From: Dehalococcoidia bacterium | Lineage (GTDB): Bacteria; Chloroflexota; Dehalococcoidia; DSTF01; JACRBR01 | DNA: 64,000 nt | Assembly (NCBI GenBank): GCA_021731085.1 | Contig: JAKFYB010000001.1 | Coordinates: forward strand, 101,266-165,265 | Reading direction: 5' to 3' | Part shown: piece after piece, positions 1,594 to 45,948 of the stretch | Numbering within the stretch: the first letter of the stretch is position 1 | Layout of the letters: every line of letters starts with the position of its first letter | The notes under the pieces: generated by a model | What the model was told of the DNA's origin: nothing | What the model saw: the letters and a program-made list of their open reading frames with translations, nothing else | Databases searched by the model: none | Made by a program: the position numbers and the translations under genes

Positions 1594-4176
1594 ATGCGAA
1601 TCCGAATAACTGTGCTTGCCGCGATCGCCGGCGCGGCACTCGTAGCAGGTTTTGGCAGCGACCCGACCGACAAACGCGCGCAAGCGCAGGCGCCGACCGT
1701 CGAATACACGGGCGATGTGATCGTGAAATTCGACGCGGGCGTGACGCTTCCGGAAGTGGCGCAGGCGATCAGTGATGCAGATGGTTCGGCCGTGGCGACC
1801 AGCGCCGGTTCCGGCCTCGTGCTTGTCGAGCCTGCGGACGGCCAGTCACTTCAGGATGCGCTCAGTGAGTTGAAAGCGAACCCGGACGTAGCGTTCGCCG
1901 AGGCGGATACCGTCATGCGGGCCGACCTCATGCCCAACGATCCGCTTGCCAACAACGCGAGCTACAACTGGAGCTTGACCGAGATCGGCGCGCCCACCGC
2001 GTGGGACACGACGACGGGCAATGCGAACGTCATTGTGGCGGTGGTGGACACGGGCGTGGATGGCACGCCAGGCGACCTCATCGGCAAACTGACCTCCGGG
2101 GCGAACGCGGGCAAGAACTTCATCCAGATCGGCGTGAACACGTCCGTGAACGCGTCTGGTACAGCACGCATCCGGACGACGACAGCGCACCCGTATCGTT
2201 CGGGGGACTTCATCACGATCGCCGGCCACAGCGTCGCGGCCTACAACGGCTCGCGCGAGGTCTTCGTTCCCTCGACGAACATCAGCTCCGTCAGCAATTC
2301 AAGCGGTTCGGTGCTTGTCACAACATCCGCAGCCCACCAGCTTGCAACCGGCGATATGGTCAGCATCCGCAGCAACAGCGCGAACGTGACCTACCTTGCC
2401 GCGTCAACATCGATCAACCGCGAGTGGACGGTGACTGTCACGAGCACGACGCAGTTCACGCTGAACAGCGCGACCTACAACACTGCCGGCACCGGCGGGC
2501 AGGCGCGCGTCGCCTCCTACATGAATCTCGTGAGCGTGCCGTACACAAGCGCCGGGGCCGGTGGCACGGCGACCAACGACTCGCCGCGCGACGACCACAG
2601 CCACGGCACGTTCGTATCGGGCATCATCGCCGCGAATTCGAACAACGGTACAGGCATGGCGGGCGTCTGCTGGTCGTGCAAGATCATGCCGGTTAAGGTG
2701 CTGGACCACGAGGGCTATGGAAGTTCGTTCGGCGTCTCGCAAGGCATCGACTGGGCGGTCGCGAATGGCGCCGACGTTATCAACCTGAGCCTCGGCGGGG
2801 GCGGCACGGCAGGCTTGCAGACGTCGGTGAACAACGCATGGGCTGCCGGCGTGATCGTTGTCGCGGCGACGGGCAATGACAACGGGCCTGTGTCGTTCCC
2901 CGCTGCGTACTCCAACGCGATTGCCGTTGGCTCGACGCAACAAGGTGGCTCGCGGTCGTCATTCAGCAACTTCGGCCCGGAGATCGACATCGTCGCTCCC
3001 GGTAGCAGCGTGCTCGGCACATTGTGCCAGTGCAACGGTGGTGCAGGTGGCTACGGCACGGGCAGCGGCACGTCGTTCTCGACGCCATATGTCGCGGGTG
3101 CTGCGGCGCTCCTCATCGCGTCGGGGGTGACGGATAAGGCGCAGATCCGCTCGAAACTGCTGACGACGGCCACGGATCTTGGTACCGGCGGCTTCGACAA
3201 CCTCTATGGCAACGGTCGTCTCAACGTTGGCTCAGCGATCGCCACCCCAGGGACGGCCACACCAACCAACACTCCGACGAACACGGCAACGCCCACGAAC
3301 ACGGCCACGCCAACATCGACGCCGACGCCCGACACGACTGATCCTTCCGCGAACATCACAGCGCCTACGAACGGCGCCGTACTCGCGCTCGGCAATGTTG
3401 TGATAAACGCGTTTGCTGCGGATGGCGGCGGCGTGAACAAGGTTCGGTTCTGGGTGGACTCGACGTACCTGGGATTCGATAGTGCCGCTCCGTACACCAG
3501 GACCTGGGACGCGAGTAGTGCTGGACCTGGCAGCAGTCACGTAATCAAGATCGAAGCGATCGACAACTCGAACAACTCGACCATCCGAACCATCACGGTC
3601 ACGATGGCTGGTGCGGACGGAACGCCACCGACGGCGAGCATTACCTCGCCTGTGGCTGGTGCGAGCGTCTCCGGCATGGTGCCGGTCAACGCTACGGCCA
3701 GTGACGCCGGTGGCATCAACAAGGTGCGGTTCTGGGCGGGTTCGACCTATCTCGGCTTCGACGCAACAGCGCCGTACTCCAGGACGTGGGACTCTTCCCT
3801 CTCCGTATCGGGGCCAGTGACGTTGAAAATCGAAGCCATTGACAACGCGAACAACTCAACGTTCCGGACGATTGTAGTGACAAACGTGTCAACTGATGTG
3901 ACGCCGCCGACGGCGACGATCACTGTCCCTGCTGACGGCGCCACCGTCTCTGGCACGGTCGCGTTAACGGCAACGGGATCCGACGCCGGCGGTATCCAGA
4001 AGATTCGGTTCTGGGTCGACGCGACGTACCTTGGTTACGACTCTACGAGTCCGTACCAGCGTTCGTGGAACACAACTCTCGTGCCGAACGGCGTCTACGT
4101 CCTCAAGGCACAGGCTGTCGATCTGGCAAATAACGAAAGCACGATCGTCACCATCACCGTGACCGTGTCGAATTAG
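1594..4176 (+). CDS. Secreted S8 subtilisin-like serine protease with Thr/Pro linker and three C-terminal Ig-like repeats
   Basis: Catalytic triad motifs VVDTGVD, HGTFVSGIIAA and GTSFSTPYVAGAAALL. N-terminal signal peptide. About 185 aa inserted between the Asp and His motifs. GAGGGGG RBS upstream of the ATG. Confidence 0.85.
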   Translation: MRIRITVLAAIAGAALVAGFGSDPTDKRAQAQAPTVEYTGDVIVKFDAGVTLPEVAQAISDADGSAVATSAGSGLVLVEPADGQSLQDALSELKANPDVAFAEADTVMRADLMPNDPLANNASYNWSLTEIGAPTAWDTTTGNANVIVAVVDTGVDGTPGDLIGKLTSGANAGKNFIQIGVNTSVNASGTARIRTTTAHPYRSGDFITIAGHSVAAYNGSREVFVPSTNISSVSNSSGSVLVTTSAAHQLATGDMVSIRSNSANVTYLAASTSINREWTVTVTSTTQFTLNSATYNTAGTGGQARVASYMNLVSVPYTSAGAGGTATNDSPRDDHSHGTFVSGIIAANSNNGTGMAGVCWSCKIMPVKVLDHEGYGSSFGVSQGIDWAVANGADVINLSLGGGGTAGLQTSVNNAWAAGVIVVAATGNDNGPVSFPAAYSNAIAVGSTQQGGSRSSFSNFGPEIDIVAPGSSVLGTLCQCNGGAGGYGTGSGTSFSTPYVAGAAALLIASGVTDKAQIRSKLLTTATDLGTGGFDNLYGNGRLNVGSAIATPGTATPTNTPTNTATPTNTATPTSTPTPDTTDPSANITAPTNGAVLALGNVVINAFAADGGGVNKVRFWVDSTYLGFDSAAPYTRTWDASSAGPGSSHVIKIEAIDNSNNSTIRTITVTMAGADGTPPTASITSPVAGASVSGMVPVNATASDAGGINKVRFWAGSTYLGFDATAPYSRTWDSSLSVSGPVTLKIEAIDNANNSTFRTIVVTNVSTDVTPPTATITVPADGATVSGTVALTATGSDAGGIQKIRFWVDATYLGYDSTSPYQRSWNTTLVPNGVYVLKAQAVDLANNESTIVTITVTVSN
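3343..4173 (+). repeat. Three tandem ~280-nt coding repeats (~93-aa Ig-like modules) in the protease C-terminus
   Basis: The protein repeats the pattern TPPTA(T/S)IT.P..GA.VSG.V...A..SDAGGI.K(V/I)RFW...TYLG(F/Y)D...PY.R(T/S)W three times. Confidence 0.7.
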
Positions 4177-33684: not shown

Positions 33685-34551
33685 CTACGTAGCCGCGTGC
33701 GGCGACTCCACGTCGCCTGTCGTCGGCTCTGGGTGTTCGGCGAGCGCTTCCTGCTCTGGCGTTGCACCTTTGTGGCGGCGCGCGTACGGCATCGCGATCG
33801 TCTTGCCGGGCTGTTTCGGGTGTTCCCGGCTCGCGACCTCCACGCCGAAGACGTCACGCAGCAGTTCGGGCGTGAGCACTTCGTCCGTGGGTCCGCTGCC
33901 GACGATGCGCCCGGCGCCCATCGCCAGCACGCGGTGGGCGTACAGCGCCGCCAGCCACAGCTCGTGCATCGATAGTACGACAGTTACGCCATGCTCCTTC
34001 AGCTCCGACAGCAGATCCATGAGCTCGAACTGGTGCGCGAGGTCCAGGAAGGCCGTCGGCTCGTCGAGCAGCAACACATCCGGCCGCTGGGCGAGCGCCA
34101 TCGTCAGCCACGCGCGCCGCATCTCGCCCTGCGAGAGTTGCCGCAGTGGCCGCGCGCGAAACCCGGCCATGTTCATCGCGCCGAGCGCCCACTCGACCGC
34201 GTGCGTGTCCTCGGCAGCGTTGCGCGAGAGCAGCGACTGGTGAGGGTAGCGCCCTCGATATGCCAGCTCTTCCACCGTCAGGTCTGGGAGCCCGTCGCCG
34301 CCCTGGCCGAGAAACGCCAGTCTCTTCGCGACGGCACGGTTCGGTAGCTGGTGCAGCACTTCGCCGTCGAGCAGCACGACGCCGGTGGTTGGCTTGAGAA
34401 TGCGCGATAACACGCGTAGCAGCGTCGACTTTCCGGCGCCGTTCGGCCCGATCAGCGCCGTGATACGACGCTCCTCTATGACGAGATCGACATCCTCGAT
34501 GTGAAAGCCGTGGCCGTATCCGGCGGATAGCGCGCGTGCCTCGAGCCTCAT
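33685..34551 (-). CDS. ABC transporter ATP-binding protein (iron-siderophore/cobalamin FepC/FecE type)
   Basis: Walker A GPNGAGKST, LSQGE signature and Walker B LLLDEP, plus a ~40-aa C-terminal extension. Confidence 0.85.
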   Translation of the reverse strand: MRLEARALSAGYGHGFHIEDVDLVIEERRITALIGPNGAGKSTLLRVLSRILKPTTGVVLLDGEVLHQLPNRAVAKRLAFLGQGGDGLPDLTVEELAYRGRYPHQSLLSRNAAEDTHAVEWALGAMNMAGFRARPLRQLSQGEMRRAWLTMALAQRPDVLLLDEPTAFLDLAHQFELMDLLSELKEHGVTVVLSMHELWLAALYAHRVLAMGAGRIVGSGPTDEVLTPELLRDVFGVEVASREHPKQPGKTIAMPYARRHKGATPEQEALAEHPEPTTGDVESPHAAT

Positions 34552-35570
34552 GTCTTCGCCCTGACCAGATACAACAGGAACGGCGCGCCCACGACGGCCG
34601 TCACGATCCCGAGCGGGATCTCCGATGGCGCGACGATTACGCGCGCAAAGAGATCGGCATAGACAACGAGCGACGCACCAAGCAGCGCTGACAACGGGAT
34701 CAGCTTGCGGTGATCATCGCCGATGAACGTGCGGCAGATGTGTGGGATCACGAGACCGACGAACGCGACCATACCCGCGGCCGCAACCGACGCACCGGCC
34801 AGCAGCGCCGCCGTCGCGACGGCGAACACGCGCGTGCGCTCGACGCTCAGCCCCAATGACTGCGCTGGTTCATCGCCCAGGGCGAGGATGTTCATGTTGC
34901 GCGCGAGCAGCATGGCTGCCGTGATTCCCACGACCGCGTACGGCCATGTCACCTGTAGGTCGTCCCAGCCGCGCCCGAACAATCCGCCCGCGAGCCACGA
35001 GAGTGCACTCTGGGTACTGAGGTTCGACGTCACAAGCATCGCGTTGATGCCCGCAGTCAGCAGCGCCGCGACGGCGACGCCGGAGAGCGCGAGCCGCACC
35101 GGAGACACGCCCCCGCGCCACGACATGCCATATACAAGCGCCGCCGCAAGGAACGTGCCAAGAAACGCGATCGGCGTCAGCCACGCTGGTCCGATGTCGG
35201 CCGAGATTTTGATCGCGATGCTCACCGCAAGCGCACCGCCGGCCGTAATGCCGAGCACGGTCGGGTCGGCGAGCGGGTTGCGTGTGACGCCCTGCAGCAG
35301 CGCTCCCGCCACCGCAAGACTGGCGCCGACGACGACGGCCAGCAGCACGCGCGGCAGGCGGATCTCCCAGACGACGACGCGGTCGAGCGTCGTTCCGTTG
35401 TCGAGCAGGCCATCGATCACTTGCAACGGGGAGAGGGTCGTCGCACCGAATGACAGCGCCGCGAACACGGCCAGCACTAAGAGCAGCACCGCGAAGCCCC
35501 ACACCGCCACCTCGCGCCCGGAGTTCGAGCGCGAAGGCGTAGCGGTTGGAGTAGTGGCGTGTTGCTGCAT
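34548..35570 (-). CDS. FecCD-family ABC permease
   Basis: Nine or ten TM helices with the FecCD conserved region; overlaps the neighbouring genes. Confidence 0.85.
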   Translation of the reverse strand: MQQHATTPTATPSRSNSGREVAVWGFAVLLLVLAVFAALSFGATTLSPLQVIDGLLDNGTTLDRVVVWEIRLPRVLLAVVVGASLAVAGALLQGVTRNPLADPTVLGITAGGALAVSIAIKISADIGPAWLTPIAFLGTFLAAALVYGMSWRGGVSPVRLALSGVAVAALLTAGINAMLVTSNLSTQSALSWLAGGLFGRGWDDLQVTWPYAVVGITAAMLLARNMNILALGDEPAQSLGLSVERTRVFAVATAALLAGASVAAAGMVAFVGLVIPHICRTFIGDDHRKLIPLSALLGASLVVYADLFARVIVAPSEIPLGIVTAVVGAPFLLYLVRAKT

Positions 35571-36604
35571 CAGTTGAAGATGTCCGGGTAGAGAAGCTTC
35601 GTCAGGATGTCGAGGCCTTCGCCCGCGCGCGGCCCCGGCGCTTGCAGGAAGATCGCGGCGTCGATCTCACTCACGCGTTCGTTGGTGACCGCGGGCACGC
35701 TCGCCCACGCGGGATCGGCCGCCAGCGACTGACTGATCGTCTCGCCCGGTGCCGCCGTGATCGCCAGCACGACTTCAGGCGCCTCGCCGATGATCGTCTC
35801 CAGACTGAGCTTCGCGTAGCCGGGGAACGGCGCGTTGCTCGGCTGTCCCGCAGCAACATTGTCCGCGCCCGCAAGCCGCGCGAGGTCGCCCACGTACGAC
35901 TCCGGCAGCGCGACGAAGAAGTCAGTCGGCGTGCCGTTGAGGATGACGACCTTCGCCTTCTCCGCAGGCAGCTTGCTCTCGATATCCGCGAGCTGCGCCT
36001 CAAGTGCTGCAGCCTGCGTCTCGCCTTCGCCCGTGTTCAGCGCCTGGCCGATGAGCCGATATGCCGTCAGTACGTCCTCGAAGTTCTCTGCGCCGATGTA
36101 GAGCACCGGTATGCCGAGCGCCTCGAGCTGTCCAGCAAGCTGCACCTGCAGCACGCTGTCCGCGACGATGAGGTCGGGCGACGCGCCTGCCAGCAACTCA
36201 ACGTTCGGTTGGTACGCGGAGCCGATGTCCGTCGCCGAGAGCGCTTCCTCCGGGAAGTCCACGGACGCCGTGCGCGTCAGGCTCGTCTCGCCGACGGCGT
36301 ACACGAACTCGACCGTCGTCGGGCTGATGGCGGCGATCGCGGCCGGTTCGGCGTCGATCTTCACGCTGCGGCCAGCCATGTCGGTCACCGTCAGCGGATA
36401 CGTCGTCTCCTCGTCTGCGGCTGCCGTCGGTGAGGTCGATGCGCCCGTCGTCGCTTCGGCGGTCGCGACCGGGGTTGTGTCGTCCGCCGTATCGTCGTCG
36501 TCGCTACATGCTGCTGCCGAGATCAACAGGGCAGGCAGTGCAGCGGCGACGAGCAGGCGCTTCCAGGTCAGGGATGTCCTCATTCGGGTGATGCTCCTCC
36601 ACAT
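35570..36604 (-). CDS. ABC substrate-binding lipoprotein (class III, siderophore/cobalamin-binding)
   Basis: Lipobox LLISAAACSDD and PBP-fold length. Operon with the permease and ATPase. Confidence 0.75.
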   Translation of the reverse strand: MWRSITRMRTSLTWKRLLVAAALPALLISAAACSDDDDTADDTTPVATAEATTGASTSPTAAADEETTYPLTVTDMAGRSVKIDAEPAAIAAISPTTVEFVYAVGETSLTRTASVDFPEEALSATDIGSAYQPNVELLAGASPDLIVADSVLQVQLAGQLEALGIPVLYIGAENFEDVLTAYRLIGQALNTGEGETQAAALEAQLADIESKLPAEKAKVVILNGTPTDFFVALPESYVGDLARLAGADNVAAGQPSNAPFPGYAKLSLETIIGEAPEVVLAITAAPGETISQSLAADPAWASVPAVTNERVSEIDAAIFLQAPGPRAGEGLDILTKLLYPDIFN

Positions 36605-36784
36605 AATGAAGGCGAGGTTAAGCCTCGCCCCGCGTCACGTATGCCAACGCTTCGAGCGTATCTGCGGGCGGTCGCCTCCGGAATAGACAACGGTCCCAAA
36701 TCTGCGCAAATCTGTGCGAACGACGCGCAACCATGCCGATCGGGAGATTCGCCGCCACCCCAGAACCCAGGCGACCGCGCCTGT

Positions 36785-36814
36785 TTGACAGCTTCGTTAT
36801 GCCAGCCGTATACT
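36785..36814 (+). promoter_or_regulatory. Strong sigma70-type promoter (TTGACA-18-TATACT)
   Basis: Perfect -35, 18-nt spacer and a 5/6 -10 hexamer. It would drive a ~260-nt leader ending at the terminator at 37050-37077. Confidence 0.5.
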
Positions 36815-36819
36815 CTCGC

Positions 36820-37080
36820 CACATACAGGCGCAGACGCGCAGCAGTAGGTCTGGAAACAGCCACTAGCGAGCCGGTGATGGTGCAAGACCGGCGGCACGA
36901 CCAGATCGAACTCAGCGCCGAGCTGCCGGGGTGAATGTGGCACAGTCGTCCTCGGCTGTGAGACCTAGCCCCGACCGGGTCGCGACCGTTATCACGCTCC
37001 GAGAGTCCTTCCATGGAAGGAAAGAAGGGTGGCACCGCGGGCCTTCAACCCCGTCCCTTTATGAGGACGGGTTTTTTGTT
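36820..37080 (+). promoter_or_regulatory. Candidate T-box riboswitch leader (specifier-loop candidate GAA-CUC-A, Leu) upstream of ilvBNC-leuACD
   Basis: Exact T-box consensus AGGGUGGCACCGCG at 37026-37039, immediately before a canonical intrinsic terminator whose 5' arm (CCCU) can pair with the T-box AGGG in an antiterminator. Stem-I-like helix GGUCUGG/CCAGAUC, distal hairpin 36871-36892. No credible ORF in the interval. Confidence 0.5.
37050..37077 (+). terminator. Rho-independent terminator (CCCGTCC-ctttatga-GGACGGG + TTTTTTGTT)
   Basis: 7-bp GC-rich stem, 8-nt loop and a U6 tract, on the plus strand only. Confidence 0.7.
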
Positions 37081-37419
37081 AGCCTTCGGACTACGTGAAT
37101 GGCCCCGCTAAGGCGGAGGCAAAGGGATGTCGAAGCGGCATGGCCGATTCGATACTGAACAAGATGACGAACATCAACGCTTCTCCAACGGAGGTCACCC
37201 CGGTCGCAGCGGCCAGCCTACGGGCAATCCCCTGCGACCGCGACGTACTCCTTCCTCTTCTGCCGGTAGTGGGCGGGCTCCTTCCGCTCGTACTGCTTGG
37301 CCTCGCCCTGTAAACGTCCCCTCGGCTTGAACATTGATAGCGCGGGCGGGACGGTAAATTCCCACACAGCGAGACGCACGAGCCGCACGGATGAAGGCTC
37401 GGACGCAGGAGAAGCGAAC

Positions 37420-39132
37420 ATGGCAACCCAAGGCAAGATCAAAGGCGCCGAAATCATCATGGAATCGCTCCGCAAGGAGGGTGTCGACCTGATCTTCGGC
37501 TACCCCGGCGGCGCGAACCTTCCGATGTACGACGCGCTGCACAAGTACCCCGACATCAGGCACATTCTCGTCCGCCACGAGCAGGCCGCCGCCCACGCCG
37601 CCGACGCCTACGCTCGCGTCACTGGCAAGGCCGGCGTCTGTTGGGCGACGTCCGGTCCCGGCGCGACGAACCTCGTCACCGGCATCGCCAACGCATGGAT
37701 GGACTCCGTGCCGCTGGTGTGTATCACGGGACAGGTTGTCTCGTGGCTCCTCGGCCGGGACGGATTCCAGGAAGCGGACATCACGGGCATCACCATCCCG
37801 ATCGTCAAGCAGAACTGGCTCGTCCTCAACGTCGAGGACATCGCACCGACGATCGCCGAAGCGTTCCACGTCGCGACGACGGGACGTCCCGGCCCGGTGC
37901 TCGTCGACATTCCACGCGACGTGCAACAGCAACTGTGCGAGTTCGAGTACCCCGACAAGGTCGACATCCCCGGCTACCAGCCGACCGTGCAGGGCCACCC
38001 ACAGCAGATCAAGAAGGCGGCCGCGCTCATCGCCGAGGCCGAACGCCCGCTGATTCTCGCCGGACACGGTGTCGTTATCGCGCGCGCCGCTGAAGAACTG
38101 CAAGAGCTGGCCGAGAAGGCCGACATCCCCGTCATCACGACGCTGCTCGGGCTGGGCGGCTTCCCTGGTTCGCACGAGCTGTACCAGGGCATGCCCGGCA
38201 TGCACGGCATGTACTGGAACAACATCGCGATCCAGGAGGCTGACGTCCTCATAGCGATCGGCATGCGGTTCGATGACCGCGTCACCGGCTCGCTGAAGGA
38301 CTTCGCGCCGAAAGCGAAGATCATCCACATCGAGGTCGATCCGGCGGAGGTCGGCAAAAACGTGCCGACGGCAATCCCGATCGTCGGCGACGTGAAGGCT
38401 GTTCTGCAGCAGTTGCTGCCGCACGTTGAGCGGGCGCGTCACGACGATTGGCGCAACTGGTTCCGCGAGATGCGCCGCGACCACCCGTCGATCGCCATCC
38501 CGGAGACGGAGAAGATCCTGCCGCAGTACGTCATCAAATCGATCTACGATCGATCGCCCGGCGACGCCTACTATGCGACCGGCGTTGGCCAGCACCAGAT
38601 GTGGGCGGCGCAGTACTTCTGGGGTGACAATCCGTACTCGTTCGTCACGTCCGGCGGGCTCGGAACGATGGGATTCGAAGTGCCGGCGGCGATCGGCGTG
38701 CAGTTCGCGCGCCCGCAGAGCACCGTCTGGTCGTTCTGCGGCGATGGTGGCTTCCAGATGACAATGGAGGAGCTGGCGCTCTGCCGCGAGTACGAACTGC
38801 CGATCAAGTTCGCCATCATCAACAACCACTTTCTCGGCATGGTGCGGCAGTGGCAGGACACCTTCTACGACCACAACCTCTCGCAGGTGAAGATGTTCCA
38901 GCCGGACTTCGTGAAGCTTGCGGAGGCGATGGGCATCGAGGCGATCCGCGTCACGGACAAGGCCATGGTGCCGACGGCGATCGACGCAGCGTTGCAGCAC
39001 CCCGGCGCCGTCCTCATCGACTTCCACGTCGAGCACGTCGAGGACTGCTACCCGATGATGCCGCCTGGCGTCAGCCTCTCCGACACGATCGACCAGCCGC
39101 CGGTCGCCCAACTGCAGGAGGCGCTGCGATGA
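37420..39132 (+). CDS. ilvB: Acetolactate synthase large subunit (biosynthetic type)
   Basis: ThDP-enzyme motifs throughout and an N-terminus (MATQGKIKGAEII) typical of AHAS. AGGAGA RBS. The ORF-track start at 37297 looks like an upstream artefact. Confidence 0.9.
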   Translation: MATQGKIKGAEIIMESLRKEGVDLIFGYPGGANLPMYDALHKYPDIRHILVRHEQAAAHAADAYARVTGKAGVCWATSGPGATNLVTGIANAWMDSVPLVCITGQVVSWLLGRDGFQEADITGITIPIVKQNWLVLNVEDIAPTIAEAFHVATTGRPGPVLVDIPRDVQQQLCEFEYPDKVDIPGYQPTVQGHPQQIKKAAALIAEAERPLILAGHGVVIARAAEELQELAEKADIPVITTLLGLGGFPGSHELYQGMPGMHGMYWNNIAIQEADVLIAIGMRFDDRVTGSLKDFAPKAKIIHIEVDPAEVGKNVPTAIPIVGDVKAVLQQLLPHVERARHDDWRNWFREMRRDHPSIAIPETEKILPQYVIKSIYDRSPGDAYYATGVGQHQMWAAQYFWGDNPYSFVTSGGLGTMGFEVPAAIGVQFARPQSTVWSFCGDGGFQMTMEELALCREYELPIKFAIINNHFLGMVRQWQDTFYDHNLSQVKMFQPDFVKLAEAMGIEAIRVTDKAMVPTAIDAALQHPGAVLIDFHVEHVEDCYPMMPPGVSLSDTIDQPPVAQLQEALR

Positions 39133-39704
39133 GTGGTCGTTTGCACACGATCGTCGCGCTCGTCGAGAACCGGCCCGGCGTCCTGAACAAGATCGCCAGC
39201 AAGTGGCGCCAGCGTGGCTTCAACATCGAGAGCCTGACCGTCGGCCACAGCGAGACGCCCGGGCTGTCGCGCATGACATTCACCGTCGATGGCACCACGA
39301 ACGACATCGAGCAGGTCACGAAGCAGCTCTTCAAGGTGATCGAGGTCGTGAAGATCAGCGACGTCACCGAGCAGGAGACCGTCGCCCGCGAATTGGCGCT
39401 GATCAAAGTCTCGACGACGAAGGAGACCCGCAGCGCCATCATCGAGATCGTCGACATCTTCCGCGCGAAGATCGTCGATGTCGCAGTCGACTCGCTCGTC
39501 GTCGAGACGACCGGCACGGAGGACAAGGTCGATGCGCTGATCAGCATGCTGACCCCGTATGGGTTGAAAGAGCTGGTGCGCACAGGTCGCGTCGCGATGG
39601 TTCGCGGCGGCACCTCGACGGTAGGCGCGCCCCAACGCAACGGCCAGGAACGGCACTTCAAGCCCGCCGGCGAAGGCAAACCCAAAGTCGGGAGTCTAAT
39701 CTAG
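39129..39704 (+). CDS. ilvN: Acetolactate synthase small (regulatory) subunit
   Basis: ACT-domain N-terminus (LVENRPGVLNKIASKWRQRGFNIESL). ATGA overlap with the ilvB stop. ~25-aa C-terminal extension. Confidence 0.85.
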   Translation: MSGRLHTIVALVENRPGVLNKIASKWRQRGFNIESLTVGHSETPGLSRMTFTVDGTTNDIEQVTKQLFKVIEVVKISDVTEQETVARELALIKVSTTKETRSAIIEIVDIFRAKIVDVAVDSLVVETTGTEDKVDALISMLTPYGLKELVRTGRVAMVRGGTSTVGAPQRNGQERHFKPAGEGKPKVGSLI

Positions 39705-41367: not shown

Positions 41368-42912
41368 ATGGTAGACAAGGTACTGATCTTCGATACGACA
41401 CTGCGGGACGGCGAGCAGTCGCCCGGCGTCGCCCTGACCGCCGCCGACAAGATGGAGATCGCGCGCCAGCTCGAGAAGCTGGGCGTGGACATCATTGAGG
41501 CCGGCTTCCCGCGCACGTCACCCGGTGACTTCTCCGCGGTCGAAGCGATAGCGAAAGAAATCAAGAACTCCCAGATCGCTGGACTCGCACACGCTAACCC
41601 CGAGGCGGTCGATGCCTGTTGGGACGCCGTGAAGGTCGGCGTCGCTCCGCGCATCCATGTCTTCCTGTCGAGCAGCGACATTCACATCATGCACCAGCTC
41701 GCCAAGGACAAGGAGACGGTGCTGGAGATGGCACGGACGATGGTCGCCCGCGCGGCAGGCTACTGCTCCGACGTCGAGTTCAGTCCGATGGACGCGACGC
41801 GCAGCGACCGCCAGTTCGTGTACTGGATGCTCGAACAGACGATCGCGGCCGGCGCGACGACAATCAACATCCCGGATACCGTCGGCTACACGGTGCCGGA
41901 GGAGTTCTACCAGTTCATCATCGACATCAAGAACAACGTCCCGAACATCGACAAGGCGCGCATCAGCGTCCACTGCCACAACGACCTCGGCCTCGCCGTC
42001 GCAAACTCGCTGTCTGCCGTGAAGGCGGGCGCGCGACAGATCGAGACGTGCATCAACGGCATCGGTGAGCGTGCAGGTAACGCCGCGCTCGAAGAAGTCG
42101 CGATGGCGATCAAAACGCGCCGCGATTACCTCGGCGTCGAGACGAACATCAAGACGGAGGAGCTGTACCGCACCAGCCGCATGGTCGCGAACCTCACCGG
42201 TATGAGCGTGCAGTCCAACAAGGCGATTGTCGGCCACAACGCCTTTCGCCATCAATCCGGCATCCACCAGGACGGCGTCCTGAAGATGCGCGAGACGTAC
42301 GAGATCATGAACGCGCAGGACATCGGCTGGCCGACATCCGGCGGCGAGATCGTGCTCGGTAAGGTGTCCGGACGCCACGGCTTCAAGTCGCGTCTGGAGG
42401 AGATGGGGTACTTCCTGTCCGAGGAGGAGCTGTCCCGCGCCTTCATGGCGTTCAAGGAGTTAGCCGACAAGAAGGCCGAGATCGACGACCGCGATCTGGA
42501 GGCGATCGTTGCCGACAAGCTGCGGACCGCGCAGGAGGTCTACCACCTCGATTTCGTACAAGTGCAGTGCGGCGACCACGCCGCGCCGACTGCGACGGTT
42601 CGCGTCATCGCGCCGGACGGCTCGATTCGCGCCGACGCCGCGCTCGGCACCGGCCCGGTGGACGCCGTCTACAAGGCGATCAACCGCATCATCCAGGTCG
42701 AGAACGAACTCACCGAGTACCACGTGAAGAGCGTGACCGAGGGCATCGACGCGCAGGGCGAAGTGACGATCCGCGTCGAGGGCGGCGGTCGCAGCTACAC
42801 GGGACGTGGCGCCGACACAGACATCATCGTCGCCTCAGCGAAGGCGTACATGAACGCCCTTAACCGCATGATTTCGGCAGAGAACCCGCAGGACGCGGAA
42901 GTAAGGGTTTGA
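41368..42912 (+). CDS. leuA: 2-isopropylmalate synthase
   Basis: [16 protein letters not shown]-terminal catalytic motif, HxH motifs, and a C-terminal LeuA regulatory domain. Confidence 0.9.
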
Positions 42913-42970: not shown

Positions 42971-43315
42971 GTGATGCCTAGGAAGAATGAAGAAAACAAG
43001 GTCCGGGAAGCAAAGCTAGAGTACACCGCTGACCGACGACCGCTGTACCCGGAGATGGCTTTCACGAAGCTGAGTTCAAAAAACCAGATCACGCTTCCGG
43101 TCGCATATGTTCGCGATCTTGGTCTTAAACCGGGGGATGAGGTCGTCCTGTGGCTGGACAAGGACCACATCACAGTGGAGCGCCGACTGTATGGCAAGGA
43201 ACTGCTCGACAGCCTGCAGGGCTCGATGAAGAGCGGCGAATGGAGCACGAGAGAGGGTACGTTGGCATGGATCAAGAACATCCGTGACGAGTGGGAGCGT
43301 GAAATACCGCTTTGA
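42971..43315 (+). CDS. vapB: AbrB/MazE/SpoVT-family antitoxin (VapB-like)
   Basis: SpoVT_AbrB swapped-hairpin motif (QITLPVAYVRDLGLKPGDEV). The gene is markedly lower in GC than its flanks. Confidence 0.6.
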   Translation: MMPRKNEENKVREAKLEYTADRRPLYPEMAFTKLSSKNQITLPVAYVRDLGLKPGDEVVLWLDKDHITVERRLYGKELLDSLQGSMKSGEWSTREGTLAWIKNIRDEWEREIPL

Positions 43316-43826
43316 CCAATTGCTTGACGACCTCAAGGCCGTGCGGTCAGCGGTGCTCGACACAAGCGCGTGCGTTTACTTCCTGAACGAAGTAGAACCT
43401 TGGGCGACACTCGTTCGCGTCGTACTGGAACGTGGTGATCGTGGGATCCTTCGCATCATCGTGCCGAGCATCGTGCATCTGGAGTTACTTGCCAAGGCAT
43501 TTCAGGAGCAAAACGAACTTGAGCGTAAGCGGGTCGGCTCCTTTGTGCGTGGCACGCACTTCATCCGTGAGGCACTCTTCGACTTCCAGACGATGCAAAC
43601 ATCGGCTGAGGTCAGGGGGAGGCTACGGTTCAAGGTGGCAGATTCTATCGTCGTCGGCACGGCGTGCGTCGCAGGTGTCGAGGCGTTGATTGGTAACGAC
43701 GGGGCGTTTCGCCGGCTCCGGATCTCGCCACCGCCATCCCTCAGCACCCTGGACATAGCGGCAGGCCTGCCGCGGTACATCCATCTCGACGAGTACATTG
43801 AAGGCGATACAACTGGATTGGACTGA
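43284..43826 (+). CDS. vapC: PIN-domain ribonuclease toxin (VapC-like)
   Basis: Acidic residues in PIN positions (VLDTSA ... IGNDGAF). Overlaps the antitoxin gene; the exact start is uncertain. Confidence 0.6.
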   Translation: MTSGSVKYRFDQLLDDLKAVRSAVLDTSACVYFLNEVEPWATLVRVVLERGDRGILRIIVPSIVHLELLAKAFQEQNELERKRVGSFVRGTHFIREALFDFQTMQTSAEVRGRLRFKVADSIVVGTACVAGVEALIGNDGAFRRLRISPPPSLSTLDIAAGLPRYIHLDEYIEGDTTGLD

Positions 43827-43829
43827 TAC

Positions 43830-45230
43830 ATGCCGAAGACACTCTCTGAAAAGATCTGGGACGCCCATCTCGTCCGGCGCGAGGACGGGAAGCCGGATCT
43901 GCTCTACATCGACCTTCATCTCGTGCATGAGGTCACGTCAGCGCAGGCGTTCGATGGACTGCGTCTCGCGAACCGCAAGGTGCGCCGGCCGGATCTCACG
44001 CTGCTGACCGTCGACCACAACGTACCGACGGCTGACCGCGACAAGCCGTGGTCGGACCCCCTGTCCGTCGCTCAGGTCGCGGCCATCAGCAACAACGCCG
44101 ATGAGTTCGGCCTGACGTACTTCGGCGTGAACGACCGCCGCCAGGGAATCGTTCACGTCGTCGGGCCGGAGCAGGGGCTCACGCAGCCCGGCATGACGAT
44201 CGTCTGCGGCGACAGCCACACATCCACCCACGGCGCGCTCGGCGCGCTCGCGTTCGGCATCGGTACGTCCGAGGTTGAGCATGTACTCGCGACGCAGACG
44301 CTTCCGCAGGGGACACCGAAGACCATGGCCGTCGAGGTCAACGGAGAACTCGCGTTCGGCGTGACCGCCAAGGACGTGATTCTTGCGATCATCCGCACGA
44401 TCGGCGTCTCCGGCGGCATCGGCAGCATCATCGAGTACCGCGGCGATGTCATTCGCGGCTTCTCGATGGAGGGCCGCATGACGGTCTGCAACATGTCAAT
44501 CGAGGGCGGCGCCCGCGCCGGTCTCATCGCGCCGGACGAGACGACGTTCGCGTACGTCGAGGGGCGCAACTACGCGCCCAAGGGCGCCGATTGGGAGAAG
44601 GCGCTCGACGACTGGCGCGCGCTCCCGACCGACGATGGGGCCGAGTTTGATCGCGTCGTCGAACTCAAGGCCGAGGAGATCGAGCCCTGCGTAACGTGGG
44701 GTACGACGCCGGCACAGAGCGTCAACATCAAGGGCCGCGTGCCCGACCCGAACGGCATGGAAGACCCGCGTGCGCGTGAACTCGCCGAGCGCTCCCTGAC
44801 GTACATGGACCTCAAGCCGGGCACCGCGATCGAAGACATCCCCCTCGACCGCATCTTCCTCGGCTCGTGCACGAACGGGCGTATCGAAGACCTTCGGGCA
44901 GCCGCCGAGATCGTGCGCGGCAAGAAGACGGCGTCGACGCTGTCGGCGATGGTGGTGCCAGGCTCAGGCCTCGTGAAGGCGCAGGCGGAGCAAGAGGGTC
45001 TCGACAGGATCTTTATCGACGCTGGCTTCGACTGGCGCGACGCCGGCTGTTCGATGTGCCTTGGCATGAACCCTGACATCCTGCTACCCGGCGAGCGTTG
45101 CGCATCGACCTCGAACCGCAACTTCGAAGGACGGCAGGGCCCAGGCGGCCGCACACACCTCGTCAGCCCGCAGATGGCCGCCGCCGCCGCCATCGCCGGC
45201 CACTTCGTCGATATCCGCGAGTGGAAGTAA
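43830..45230 (+). CDS. leuC: 3-isopropylmalate dehydratase large subunit
   Basis: Aconitase-family motifs and the Fe-S cysteine ligands ([15 protein letters not shown]). Confidence 0.9.
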
Positions 45231-45348
45231 GGTCTAGTAGCTGCGTAGCTTTAGCTGCGCCCGAGAGCGTCAGTACTAGCGGAGCTTTAGCTCCGCCGCA
45301 GAGTTCGAGCCAAGACGGGGCCTCGCCTGGCGAGTGAAAGGCAACACG

Positions 45349-45948
45349 ATGGAACCTGTACGCAAGATTCACGGCAAGGCACTGCCCCTCCCGCGCGCTG
45401 ACATCGACACGGACCAGATCATCCCCGCGAAGTACCTCAAGCGCATCGAACGCACGGGATTCGGCGAGTTCGCGTTTGACGCCTGGCGCAAGGACCCCGA
45501 TTTCGTGCTCAACGACCACCGTTACGACGGTGCGGAGATCCTCATCACCGGCCCGAACTTCGGCTGCGGCTCATCGCGCGAGCATGCGCCGTGGGCGCTG
45601 CAGCAGATGGGCCTCAAGGCGATCATCGCGCCGTCGTTCGCCGATATCTTCAAAAACAACTGCGCGAAGGTCGGACTACTGACCGTCGAACTGCCCCAGG
45701 ACAGCATCGACCGCCTGATCGCGCGCGCTGAAGACTCTCCCGGCTGGGAGATGGAGGTCGATCTTGAATCACAGACGGTGTCGCTCGGCAACGGCAAGTC
45801 GCGCGAGTTCGACATCGACCCGTTCGTGAAGCACTGCCTGCTCAACGGCCTCGACGACATCGGCCTCACCCTCGCCAACGAAGGTGACATCACCGCGTAT
45901 GAGTCATCGCGACCTGCGTACAAGCCACAAACAGCGCCCGCTGTTTAA
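45349..45948 (+). CDS. leuD: 3-isopropylmalate dehydratase small subunit
   Basis: Aconitase swivel-domain signatures (GPNFGCGSSREHA). ATG at 45349 preferred over the upstream GTG at 45334. Confidence 0.85.
   Translation: MEPVRKIHGKALPLPRADIDTDQIIPAKYLKRIERTGFGEFAFDAWRKDPDFVLNDHRYDGAEILITGPNFGCGSSREHAPWALQQMGLKAIIAPSFADIFKNNCAKVGLLTVELPQDSIDRLIARAEDSPGWEMEVDLESQTVSLGNGKSREFDIDPFVKHCLLNGLDDIGLTLANEGDITAYESSRPAYKPQTAPAV

Follow-up and report, generated by a model that had tools for sequence, protein, structure and literature searches.

The ilv-leu locus and its leader

The 64-kb stretch of DNA analysed here (the window; positions 101,266 to 165,265 of contig JAKFYB010000001.1 from a Dehalococcoidia bacterium) carries an ilvBNC-leuA-leuCD operon on its forward strand, and the present work concerns the region directly in front of the first gene of this operon. 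That region, 36785-37419, is probably the complete 5' leader of the operon, in which two leucine-responsive modules stand in series: a T-box riboswitch and, in the spacer between its terminator and ilvB, a leucine-rich leader open reading frame (ORF). The downstream genes follow in the order ilvB-ilvN-ilvC-leuA-(toxin-antitoxin insert)-leuC-leuD.

37420-39132, forward strand: ilvB, acetolactate synthase large subunit (TIGR00118, 777.6 bits)
39129-39704, forward strand: ilvN, acetolactate synthase small subunit (PF10369, PF22629), whose start overlaps the ilvB stop codon
39852-40850, forward strand: ilvC, ketol-acid reductoisomerase
41368-42912, forward strand: leuA, 2-isopropylmalate synthase
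43830-45230, forward strand: leuC
45334-45948, forward strand: leuD

An initial annotation of the locus, made from the letters alone, had placed a T-box-like leader ahead of ilvB, followed by an unexplained gap of 340 nt. The T-box stands, and the ilvB start codon shifts by one position, to 37420 from 37421. The spacer also exists, with a length of 342 nt (37078-37419); instead of being an unexplained gap, it carries the conserved leucine-rich leader ORF.

The locus was compared with relatives from two sources. A search with IlvB, limited to one genome per species, gave 80 loci, all in metagenome-assembled genomes of uncultured Dehalococcoidia/Chloroflexota, with IlvB 63-87% identical; a scan of metagenome contigs added 80 further loci, for 160 in total. 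The window and its 24 closest relatives (L001-L022, L040 and L049) form the close clade, whose 25 leaders make up alignment A1; their spacers are compared in alignment A2.

A leucine-specific T-box riboswitch

The first module comprises the following features.

36785-36814, forward strand: sigma-70-type promoter, TTGACA (36785-36790), 18 nt, TATACT (36809-36814), found by consensus scan
36823-37061, forward strand: T-box riboswitch (RF00230) with Stem I, Stem II/IIA-B with CCGUUA, Stem III and antiterminator
36911-36913, forward strand: specifier codon CUC (Leu) in the loop GAA-CUC-A, positioned by covariance-model alignment
37026-37039, forward strand: 14-nt T-box sequence AGGGUGGCACCGCG, with the UGGC bulge at 37030-37033
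37050-37077, forward strand: intrinsic terminator CCCGUCCC/GGGACGGG with U-run (stem 37050-37071, then TTTTTTGTT), found by terminator scan

The T-box at 36823-37061 is virtually certain to be genuine, judging from the covariance model. In an Rfam 15 scan of the 64-kb window at gathering thresholds, RF00230 was the single match, covering the full length of the model (1-219 of 219) with 110.4 bits and an E value of 1.6e-23. The alignment to the model includes the GA-motif base of Stem I, the AGUA side of the specifier loop, the AG bulge (AGCGA), the distal loop GGUGCAAG, the GAA-CUC-A loop and the CCGUUA of Stem IIA/B; the Stem I helix GGUCUGG/CCAGAUC and its distal hairpin are recovered by single-sequence folding too. 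A permissive scan of 36600-37500 (E up to 10) returned, besides RF00230, chance-level matches only, and the ideas of a further, degenerate T-box and of an RNA of some other known family in the spacer were rejected.

The promoter agrees with the consensus at 11 of 12 positions and is the sole such site between 36000 and 38000, where shuffled sequence would give 0.2; it sets a predicted transcript start near 36821. In the same interval the terminator is the sole terminator-like site. Its 5' arm CCCGUCCC doubles as the 3' strand of the antiterminator, with CCCGUCCCU common to both structures. Folded without the terminator 3' arm, 37020-37063 adopts the antiterminator at -13.0 kcal/mol, ((((((.......(((((...))))))))))), that is, two helices flanking the 7-nt bulge UGGCACC. 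With the 3' arm included (37020-37085) the terminator wins at -24.8 kcal/mol.

T-box, terminator and spacer are kept in 24/24 close relatives, and TTGACA-17/18-TAnAnT occurs at the equivalent place in all 23 relatives with enough upstream sequence. Within A1, the F-box, the T-box sequence and the terminator are invariant, and the pairs of Stems I, II and III vary in a compensatory way. The specifier columns (A97 A98 C99 T100 C101) are identical in 25/25 sequences, the window included, and leucine agrees with the genes downstream, ilvBNC, leuA and leuCD. Because specifier, T-box sequence, terminator and promoter are conserved and the stem pairs change in a compensatory way, the T-box is, by these sequence comparisons, leucine-specific and under selection.

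The initial annotation had thus read this part of the leader well. Its near-consensus promoter, textbook terminator, 14-nt T-box sequence with antiterminator/terminator overlap, Stem-I-like helix with distal hairpin and GAA-CUC-A leucine specifier all hold. Among the checks that it had proposed, the RF00230 scan gave a match above the gathering score (110.4 against 93 bits), folding with and without the terminator arm gave two alternative, mutually exclusive structures, and covariation was seen in the 24 orthologous leaders upstream of ilvB.

The base facing the tRNA discriminator

C37033 of the UGGC bulge faces the discriminator base of the tRNA. The initial annotation had singled out UGGC as an oddity in a leucine T-box, and the oddity is real and clade-wide: the facing base is C in 24 of the 25 clade sequences and U in L001 alone, as well as in a near-identical metagenome sequence, L081. 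UGGU prevails in sister lineages that share the CUC specifier, and U and C alternate inside another closely related family (C in L118, L123, L127, L128 and L132; U in L121, L124 and L126). L052 is likewise listed among the loci bearing on this alternation. At this position the ilvB-proximal leaders have U and C only, and the lone A belongs to L067, where the T-box lies about 1.7 kb upstream.

tRNA-Leu generally carries A73. The restriction to U and C would fit what a G73 partner allows, through G-C or G.U pairing, and the TBDB paper makes the same G73 remark for Trp T-boxes (PMC7778990). It is equally possible that an A-C opposition is tolerated, which fits the pattern just as well. The alternation could therefore reflect a tRNA-Leu with G73 instead of the near-universal A73, or an A-C opposition that is tolerated or serves to tune the riboswitch. 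A search for tRNA genes returned none in the 64-kb window and no tRNA-Leu gene in the 160 related loci, where one tRNA-Gly only was found, in two near-identical loci.

A leucine-rich leader ORF in the spacer

The second module occupies the spacer, and its coding part is as follows.

37164-37313, forward strand: leader ORF of 49 codons plus TAA, MTNINASPTEVTPVAAASLRAIPCDRDVLLPLLPVVGGLLPLVLLGLAL (alternative in-frame ATG at 37140)
37248-37310, forward strand: leucine-rich C-terminal half, codons 29-49, with 11 Leu codons (four CUC, four CUU, three CUG)

A small Leu/Val/Pro-rich ORF had been noted earlier as ending at 37313, and it does end there; ATG 37164 is its most probable start. All 25 sequences of A2 keep the spacer, and 24 of them keep the ORF intact, at a length of 44-59 codons across the clade. 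From an invariant GAGG anchor to the stop codon the distance varies among eight values between 108 and 141 nt, and in 24/25 sequences it is divisible by three. The stop codon falls in one alignment column as TAA (13 sequences), TAG (10) or TGA (2), and an ATG is conserved.

The composition of the ORF is as distinctive as its frame. Leucine makes up 16-23% of the leader peptides against 7% of IlvB; in the window it accounts for 11 of 49 codons counted from ATG 37164, or 13 of 57 (23%) from ATG 37140. CUU, otherwise rare, provides 18-31% of the leader Leu codons against 2-6% of those in ilvB. The last 20 residues of the leaders contain 6.2 Leu on average, compared with 0.9 in the best minus-strand control ORFs, which are not Leu-rich. 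Between the window sequence and L001, Leu codons have changed synonymously. We consider it likely that the leader ORF is translated and regulatory. Its peptide has no Pfam match, and since the exact peptide is not in a collection of 15 billion proteins, gene callers have evidently overlooked the ORF.

Two other frames that cross the spacer were rejected: a minus-strand gene at 37091-37426 (111 amino acids), which runs across the ilvB ribosome-binding site, and an out-of-frame forward-strand ORF at 37127-37330 (67 codons), which overlaps the leader ORF. Both are open through GC richness, and neither has a conserved start or stop. The window also has an insertion of its own after the terminator (37085-37140), absent from relatives, in which a GGAGG (37114-37118) lies 8 nt before ATG 37127.

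It is unlikely that the T-box alone regulates the operon and that the spacer is a structured, non-coding 5' untranslated region, serving for example mRNA stability or processing, with the ORF and its leucine richness as by-products of pyrimidine-rich, GC-rich RNA. GC-rich sequence does leave long frames open here, several of them and on both strands, the conservation of the peptide largely coincides with helices (the arms of the P1 hairpin described below encode EVTPV and RDRxV, and the anti-Shine-Dalgarno segment encodes ASP), and the frame is lost in L005. A non-coding RNA would nevertheless not be expected to change length in threes in 24/25 sequences, to alternate TAA, TAG and TGA in place behind a conserved ATG or to exchange Leu codons synonymously, as between the window sequence and L001. 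The Leu runs of sister families, moreover, use mixed codons and are not simple pyrimidine tracts, and some loci have the leader ORF alone behind its own promoter, in L024 with a good Shine-Dalgarno sequence.

Even if the ORF is coding, it might specify a small hydrophobic (membrane) peptide with a function of its own, linked to the operon by co-transcription alone, which we regard as highly improbable. The C-terminal 22 residues are hydrophobic in the window and resemble a transmembrane helix in some families, for instance GLLGLGLLLLVLVLR. What is conserved, however, is leucine richness alone, and neither the sequence nor a hydrophobic stretch of transmembrane length; families ending in ...RPGLLALLLS or with charged interruptions lack such a helix. 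The fixed place of the ORF, always 85-130 nt upstream of ilvB, and the missing Pfam and protein-collection matches also speak against it.

RNA structure of the spacer and proposed masking of the ilvB Shine-Dalgarno sequence

The spacer folds better than shuffled sequence (z -3.5) and contains the following elements.

37178-37186, forward strand: anti-Shine-Dalgarno (anti-SD) CGCUUCUCC, leader codons 5-8 (Ala-Ser-Pro)
37190-37194, forward strand: internal GGAGG, whose GAGG core forms invariant columns of A2; predicted pairing with the CUCC of the first Leu codons closes P1
37201-37240, forward strand: P1 hairpin inside the ORF, CGGUCGCAG, variable inner hairpin, CUGCGACCG (RNAalifold, pair counts)
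37315-37353, forward strand: A:B hairpin, CGUCCC.../...GGGACG (folds of 25 relatives, pair counts)
37379-37401, forward strand: C:D hairpin just 5' of the ilvB ribosome-binding site, conserved in position and variable in sequence among relatives
37408-37416, forward strand: ilvB Shine-Dalgarno (SD) region GGAGAAGCG, partner of the anti-SD

P1 is paired in 98.5% of its alignment cells, includes two compensatory pairs (U-A 11, C-G 9; G-C 21, A-U 2) and is recovered in single-sequence folds of relatives. The A:B hairpin starts 1 nt past the leader stop codon in the window and 0-3 nt past it across relatives, with a conserved base (CGUCCC/GGGACG) and a variable top. In sister families (L024, L031, L033, L035, L043) the leader stop is embedded in AGGUGAGGU; next comes a helix of 9 bp, GGUCCUCGG/CCGAGGACC, which stacks on a hairpin whose loop, GGCCCCGAAnnAAUCGGGGCC, is conserved, and the conservation of this loop suggests a tertiary or protein contact.

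A protein contact is also the core of another proposal, made for the actinobacterial LEU element, in which the spacer RNA would be the binding site of a regulatory protein and the ORF would be secondary. It has a precedent in the discussion of PMC1262725, and it would suit P1 arms, a GAGG core and a CGUA that are nearly invariant across very different leader families, together with the C:D loop GGCCCCGAAnnAAUCGGGGCC conserved in sister families. Leucine richness and conservation of the frame are left unexplained, and we consider this proposal very unlikely for the present element.

In the minimum-free-energy fold, 37178-37186 pairs with 37408-37416 over 9 bp, enclosing everything between, and the duplex energy of anti-SD and SD amounts to -17 to -19 kcal/mol. 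The codons GCU and UCU of the anti-SD are unusual for a GC-rich genome, yet are kept in about half of the clade. In 17-18 of 25 relatives, no other segment along the whole spacer pairs better with the SD than the aligned anti-SD. Where the two segments differ from those of the window, they do so in a compensatory manner (L007 GCUCCUC/GAGGAGC, L013 CUGCUCC/GGAGCAG, L015 CUCCCC/GGGGAG, L021 GAUGUUCC/GGAGCAUC, and L088), and these variants arose in different branches.

The specificity of the pairing was assessed by summing the duplex energy of each leader with its own SD and comparing it with random re-pairing among relatives, a permutation test that is inflated by the relatedness of the sequences. 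The 25-sequence set gave -300.6 against a permuted -255.8 +/- 9.8 kcal/mol, a value reached by 0 of 20000 permutations (z about -4.6). For 35 non-identical sequences, metagenome leaders included, the sum was -417.6 against -357.1 +/- 13.0 kcal/mol, reached by 1 of 20000 (z -4.66).

The masking segment of the window consists of Ala-Ser-Pro codons and not of the Leu run, and in this respect it is not LEU-element-like. In a sister family ending in ...LLALLLS, it is the Leu run, CUCCUCCUU, that is complementary to UAAGGAGGA, over 8-10 bp.

Constrained partition-function folding puts the modelled cost of opening the SD and the start codon at 17 kcal/mol in the free RNA, at about 9 kcal/mol with a ribosome over the anti-SD and at about 6 kcal/mol with a queue of three ribosomes behind a stall at codons 29-33. 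An 'on' conformer in which the anti-SD would pair locally with the adjacent GGAGG was considered and rejected upon inspection of A2, since this hairpin would have a loop of 0-4 nt and a helix far weaker than the SD pairing. Masking of the ilvB SD by leader codons appears reasonably probable.

No intrinsic terminator follows the leader ORF in the scan of 36000-38000 in the window, and a run of at least four T between the leader stop and ilvB occurs in 9 of 114 related leaders. The idea that such a terminator follows, as in classical attenuators, was accordingly rejected, since it is absent in the window and rare in relatives. The initial annotation had raised the small ORF as a possible second, attenuation-like layer; a second layer is supported by a conserved, frame-keeping, Leu-rich ORF, found also without a T-box ahead of ilvB in related genomes. 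Because no terminator follows the ORF, the leader module is not a classical transcription attenuator; the conserved feature in its place is the pairing of leader codons with the ilvB SD.

The same absence lends some appeal to a different mode of action, in which the leader ORF is a real leucine sensor that acts on transcription or on the fate of the mRNA, through Rho-dependent termination or access of an RNase within the 106 nt that separate its stop from ilvB, along lines proposed for tnaC-type and terminator-less leader peptides. The stop codon adjoins the strong A:B hairpin in nearly all relatives, many of which have a short C/A-rich unpaired stretch (ACCACCAACCAAC) after A:B, and one stalled ribosome fails to open the SD in equilibrium models. 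Rho has been suggested for terminator-less actinobacterial leader peptides (PMC1262725). The region after the stop is nonetheless short, mostly paired and without a marked excess of C over G (mean C 0.33, G 0.31; window C 31, G 35), and the covarying complementarity of anti-SD and SD would be left without an explanation. We hold an action through Rho or mRNA decay to be improbable.

Distribution of the two modules

In the 24 closest relatives the T-box sequence lies 297-469 nt upstream of ilvB. An nhmmer profile built from A1 detects T-boxes in 62 of the 80 genome loci, and among 17 more distant loci with such matches 8 pass the Rfam gathering score. GAA-CUC-R is present in nearly all of the more distant T-boxes. 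Most distant T-boxes are then followed by a small ORF with plain Leu runs, 240-430 nt before ilvB. Examples of Leu runs in homologous leaders are ...RDRAVLLLLLLLGRAPLG... and LLLLLLL, besides ...GLLGLGLLLLVLVLR, ...RPGLLALLLS and ...RDRGVILLLLESLLPVS, the last three directly before the stop codon. The metagenome loci present the same picture of T-box and Leu-run ORF, and the leader-ORF family extends to about 110 of the 160 related loci, which divide as follows.

T-box and Leu-rich leader ORF: 99 of 160 loci
Leader ORF, no T-box within 600 nt: 11 of 160
Leader ORF, upstream sequence too short to judge: 3 of 160
T-box, no leader ORF by the criteria used: 1 of 160
Neither module: 12 of 160
No start or leader record (ilvD-ilvB layouts included): 34 of 160

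The leader-only loci that were inspected (L024, L028, L033 and L035) have a promoter of their own directly upstream of the ORF, and the leader of L024 has a good SD; the Rfam scan gave no T-box match in L024 and L035. Conversely, L078 has a T-box 70 nt from ilvB without a leader ORF. Because both leader-only and T-box-only loci exist, the modules are separable and the leader ORF can stand alone, from which it may be argued that the leader module is a regulator in its own right.

In six loci (L046, L067, L070, L076, L077 and L079) ilvD directly precedes ilvB; the T-box then lies ahead of ilvD, about 1.8-2.1 kb upstream, and ilvB has no leader ORF in front of it. Two distant relatives have a c-di-GMP-II-GAG riboswitch (RF03169) above the gathering score (L048:152-279 and L071:9-132), about 2.3 kb upstream of the ilvB T-box.

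A proposed two-tier mechanism

The two modules can be combined in one scheme. The first would act as a canonical transcriptional T-box, in which Stem I offers CUC to the anticodon of tRNA-Leu(GAG). The 3' end of the uncharged tRNA would pair with the UGGC bulge and stabilise the antiterminator (37024-37060); otherwise the terminator at 37050-37077 would form and transcription would stop. The second module, the Leu-rich leader ORF, would thus be present on read-through transcripts only.

On these transcripts, codons 5-8 of the free RNA would pair with the ilvB SD and close a domain of roughly 230 nt that holds P1, the Leu codons, A:B and C:D. Efficient translation of ilvB would require the 5' part of the leader ORF to be occupied by ribosomes. 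Under a shortage of Leu-tRNA, ribosomes would be held up at the 11 Leu codons within codons 29-49, and the queue behind them would reach back to the anti-SD, so that the ribosome-binding site stays open; with ample Leu-tRNA, they would clear the ORF and the masking helix would re-form. In about half of the clade a Leu codon immediately follows the anti-SD (ASP-L-EV), and a stall there would cover the anti-SD directly; the window sequence has Thr at this place.

We infer translation of the ORF, repression of ilvB by the helix and its relief through stalling at Leu codons (here by queuing) alike. That one ribosome stalled on the C-terminal Leu codons might unmask the SD directly was considered and rejected, as constrained folding does not support it in the window and in 11 relatives. 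Since a single stalled ribosome leaves the SD closed, the link between Leu codons and unmasking needs queuing or kinetics here. The specific queuing logic is only tentatively put forward.

Several observations weigh against the scheme as a whole. In the folding models, a single ribosome on any C-terminal Leu codon or on the stop codon leaves the cost of opening the SD at 13-17 kcal/mol. Seven of the 25 relatives have a weak N-terminal anti-SD, and their SD pairs best with another part of the leader transcript, mostly the Leu-rich one. No convincing SD precedes the leader start codon in the window, for which 37140 and 37164 are both candidates. Opposite the A73 expected for tRNA-Leu, UGGC would form an A-C mismatch. 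The leader ORF of L005 is frameshifted by a deletion in the internal hairpin. Finally, in Streptomyces coelicolor, mutations of the regulatory codons in the ilvB and leuA leaders did not alter regulation as attenuation predicts, as reported in the discussion of PMC1262725; by analogy, this mutagenesis is a warning that calls for caution against over-reading Leu runs.

The L005 leader (2730-3000) lacks the inner part of P1, so that its N-terminal part stops early and its Leu-rich part lies in another frame; T-box and anti-SD are both kept.

On the two-tier reading, the CUC and CUU codons of the leader may be read by the same tRNA-Leu(GAG) that the T-box recognises, and the anti-SD may be embedded in the leader codons. 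It is conceivable, at somewhat less than an even chance, that many Dehalococcoidia-type Chloroflexota possess such a two-tier sensor of tRNA-Leu charging in one leader, undescribed so far, with the T-box gating transcription and the ORF gating translation of ilvB.

Neighbouring genes

A toxin-antitoxin-like pair is inserted into the operon between leuA and leuC (42971-43826, forward strand). It consists of an AbrB/MazE-type antitoxin ORF of 114 amino acids (42971-43315; PF04014, E 8e-07) and an overlapping PIN-domain ORF of 180 amino acids (43284-43826; PF01850, E 1.3e-06). Upstream, on the reverse strand, lies a divergent ATP-binding cassette (ABC) transporter of the iron-siderophore/B12 type (33685-36604). 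It includes a substrate-binding protein (35570-36604) and a permease (34548-35570), and about 180 nt separate its end from the ilv promoter.

Comparison with known systems

The T-box closely resembles its counterpart in the ilv-leu operon of Bacillus subtilis, with which it shares the RF00230 family, a CUC leucine specifier, the ilvB...leu type of operon and the terminator/antiterminator logic. Both PMC5794164 and PMC2494555 mention the B. subtilis leader with its CUC triplet; for Dehalococcoides, early surveys gave ileS and trp T-boxes only (PMC2494555). The present T-box differs from the B. subtilis one in its host, a Dehalococcoidia-type Chloroflexota, in having UGGC and not UGGU, and in being followed after the terminator by a 342-nt regulatory spacer and not by the structural gene.

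For the leader module, the closest working likeness is the LEU element that precedes leuA in actinobacteria (Seliverstov et al. 2005, PMC1262725), which likewise has Leu codons in an upstream ORF, leader codons that form a base stem with the SD of the biosynthetic gene, and no terminator. In the LEU element, as in sister families of the present element, it is the Leu run itself that pairs with the SD. Here, by contrast, the anti-SD lies in codons 5-8, the gene is ilvB and not leuA, the phylum is another one, and the element stands behind a T-box.

The classical attenuators leuL, ilvL and ivbL of Escherichia coli and the Leu-rich peptide of Staphylococcus aureus ilvD also are short ORFs rich in the regulatory amino acid, directly upstream of ilv or leu genes, and charged tRNA is presumably sensed through the speed of the ribosome in those systems and in the present one. 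They end in an intrinsic terminator that overlaps alternative hairpins, which is missing here, and the present leader is longer (44-59 codons) with a large internal hairpin. In S. aureus, the Leu-rich attenuator peptide has replaced a T-box (PMC5794164), whereas in the genomes of the present study the two kinds of element occur together, one behind the other.

In the proposed use of a ribosome on an upstream ORF to remodel RNA that masks a downstream ribosome-binding site, the leader module resembles ermC, cat and secM-secA. Two sensors in one leader, a riboswitch and a leader ORF, are also found in Salmonella mgtA/mgtL and mgtCBR (PMC3641672). Unlike either group, the present leader would respond to the charging of tRNA-Leu, which would be read twice, once by the RNA itself and once by the ribosome.

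Full-text searches, incomplete in their coverage, turned up no account of a T-box with a leader-peptide module behind it, which is not proof of novelty. The T-box alone is an ordinary new member of a well-known family. The tandem of T-box and Leu-rich, SD-masking leader ORF is a new variant assembled from known parts and widespread in an uncultured lineage.

Significance

The T-box extends leucine T-box control of ilv-leu operons to uncultured Dehalococcoidia. Beyond this, about a hundred related loci share an architecture in which two readers of one signal stand in series, first an RNA that binds the tRNA and then a ribosome that uses it up. If the proposed reading is true, these leaders would be a natural case of layered transcriptional and translational control by tRNA charging, and the 5' leaders of about 600 nt of these operons would be accounted for. 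A family of unannotated small ORFs would be added to the annotation of Chloroflexota, and the still-unexplained actinobacterial LEU element would gain a tractable relative.

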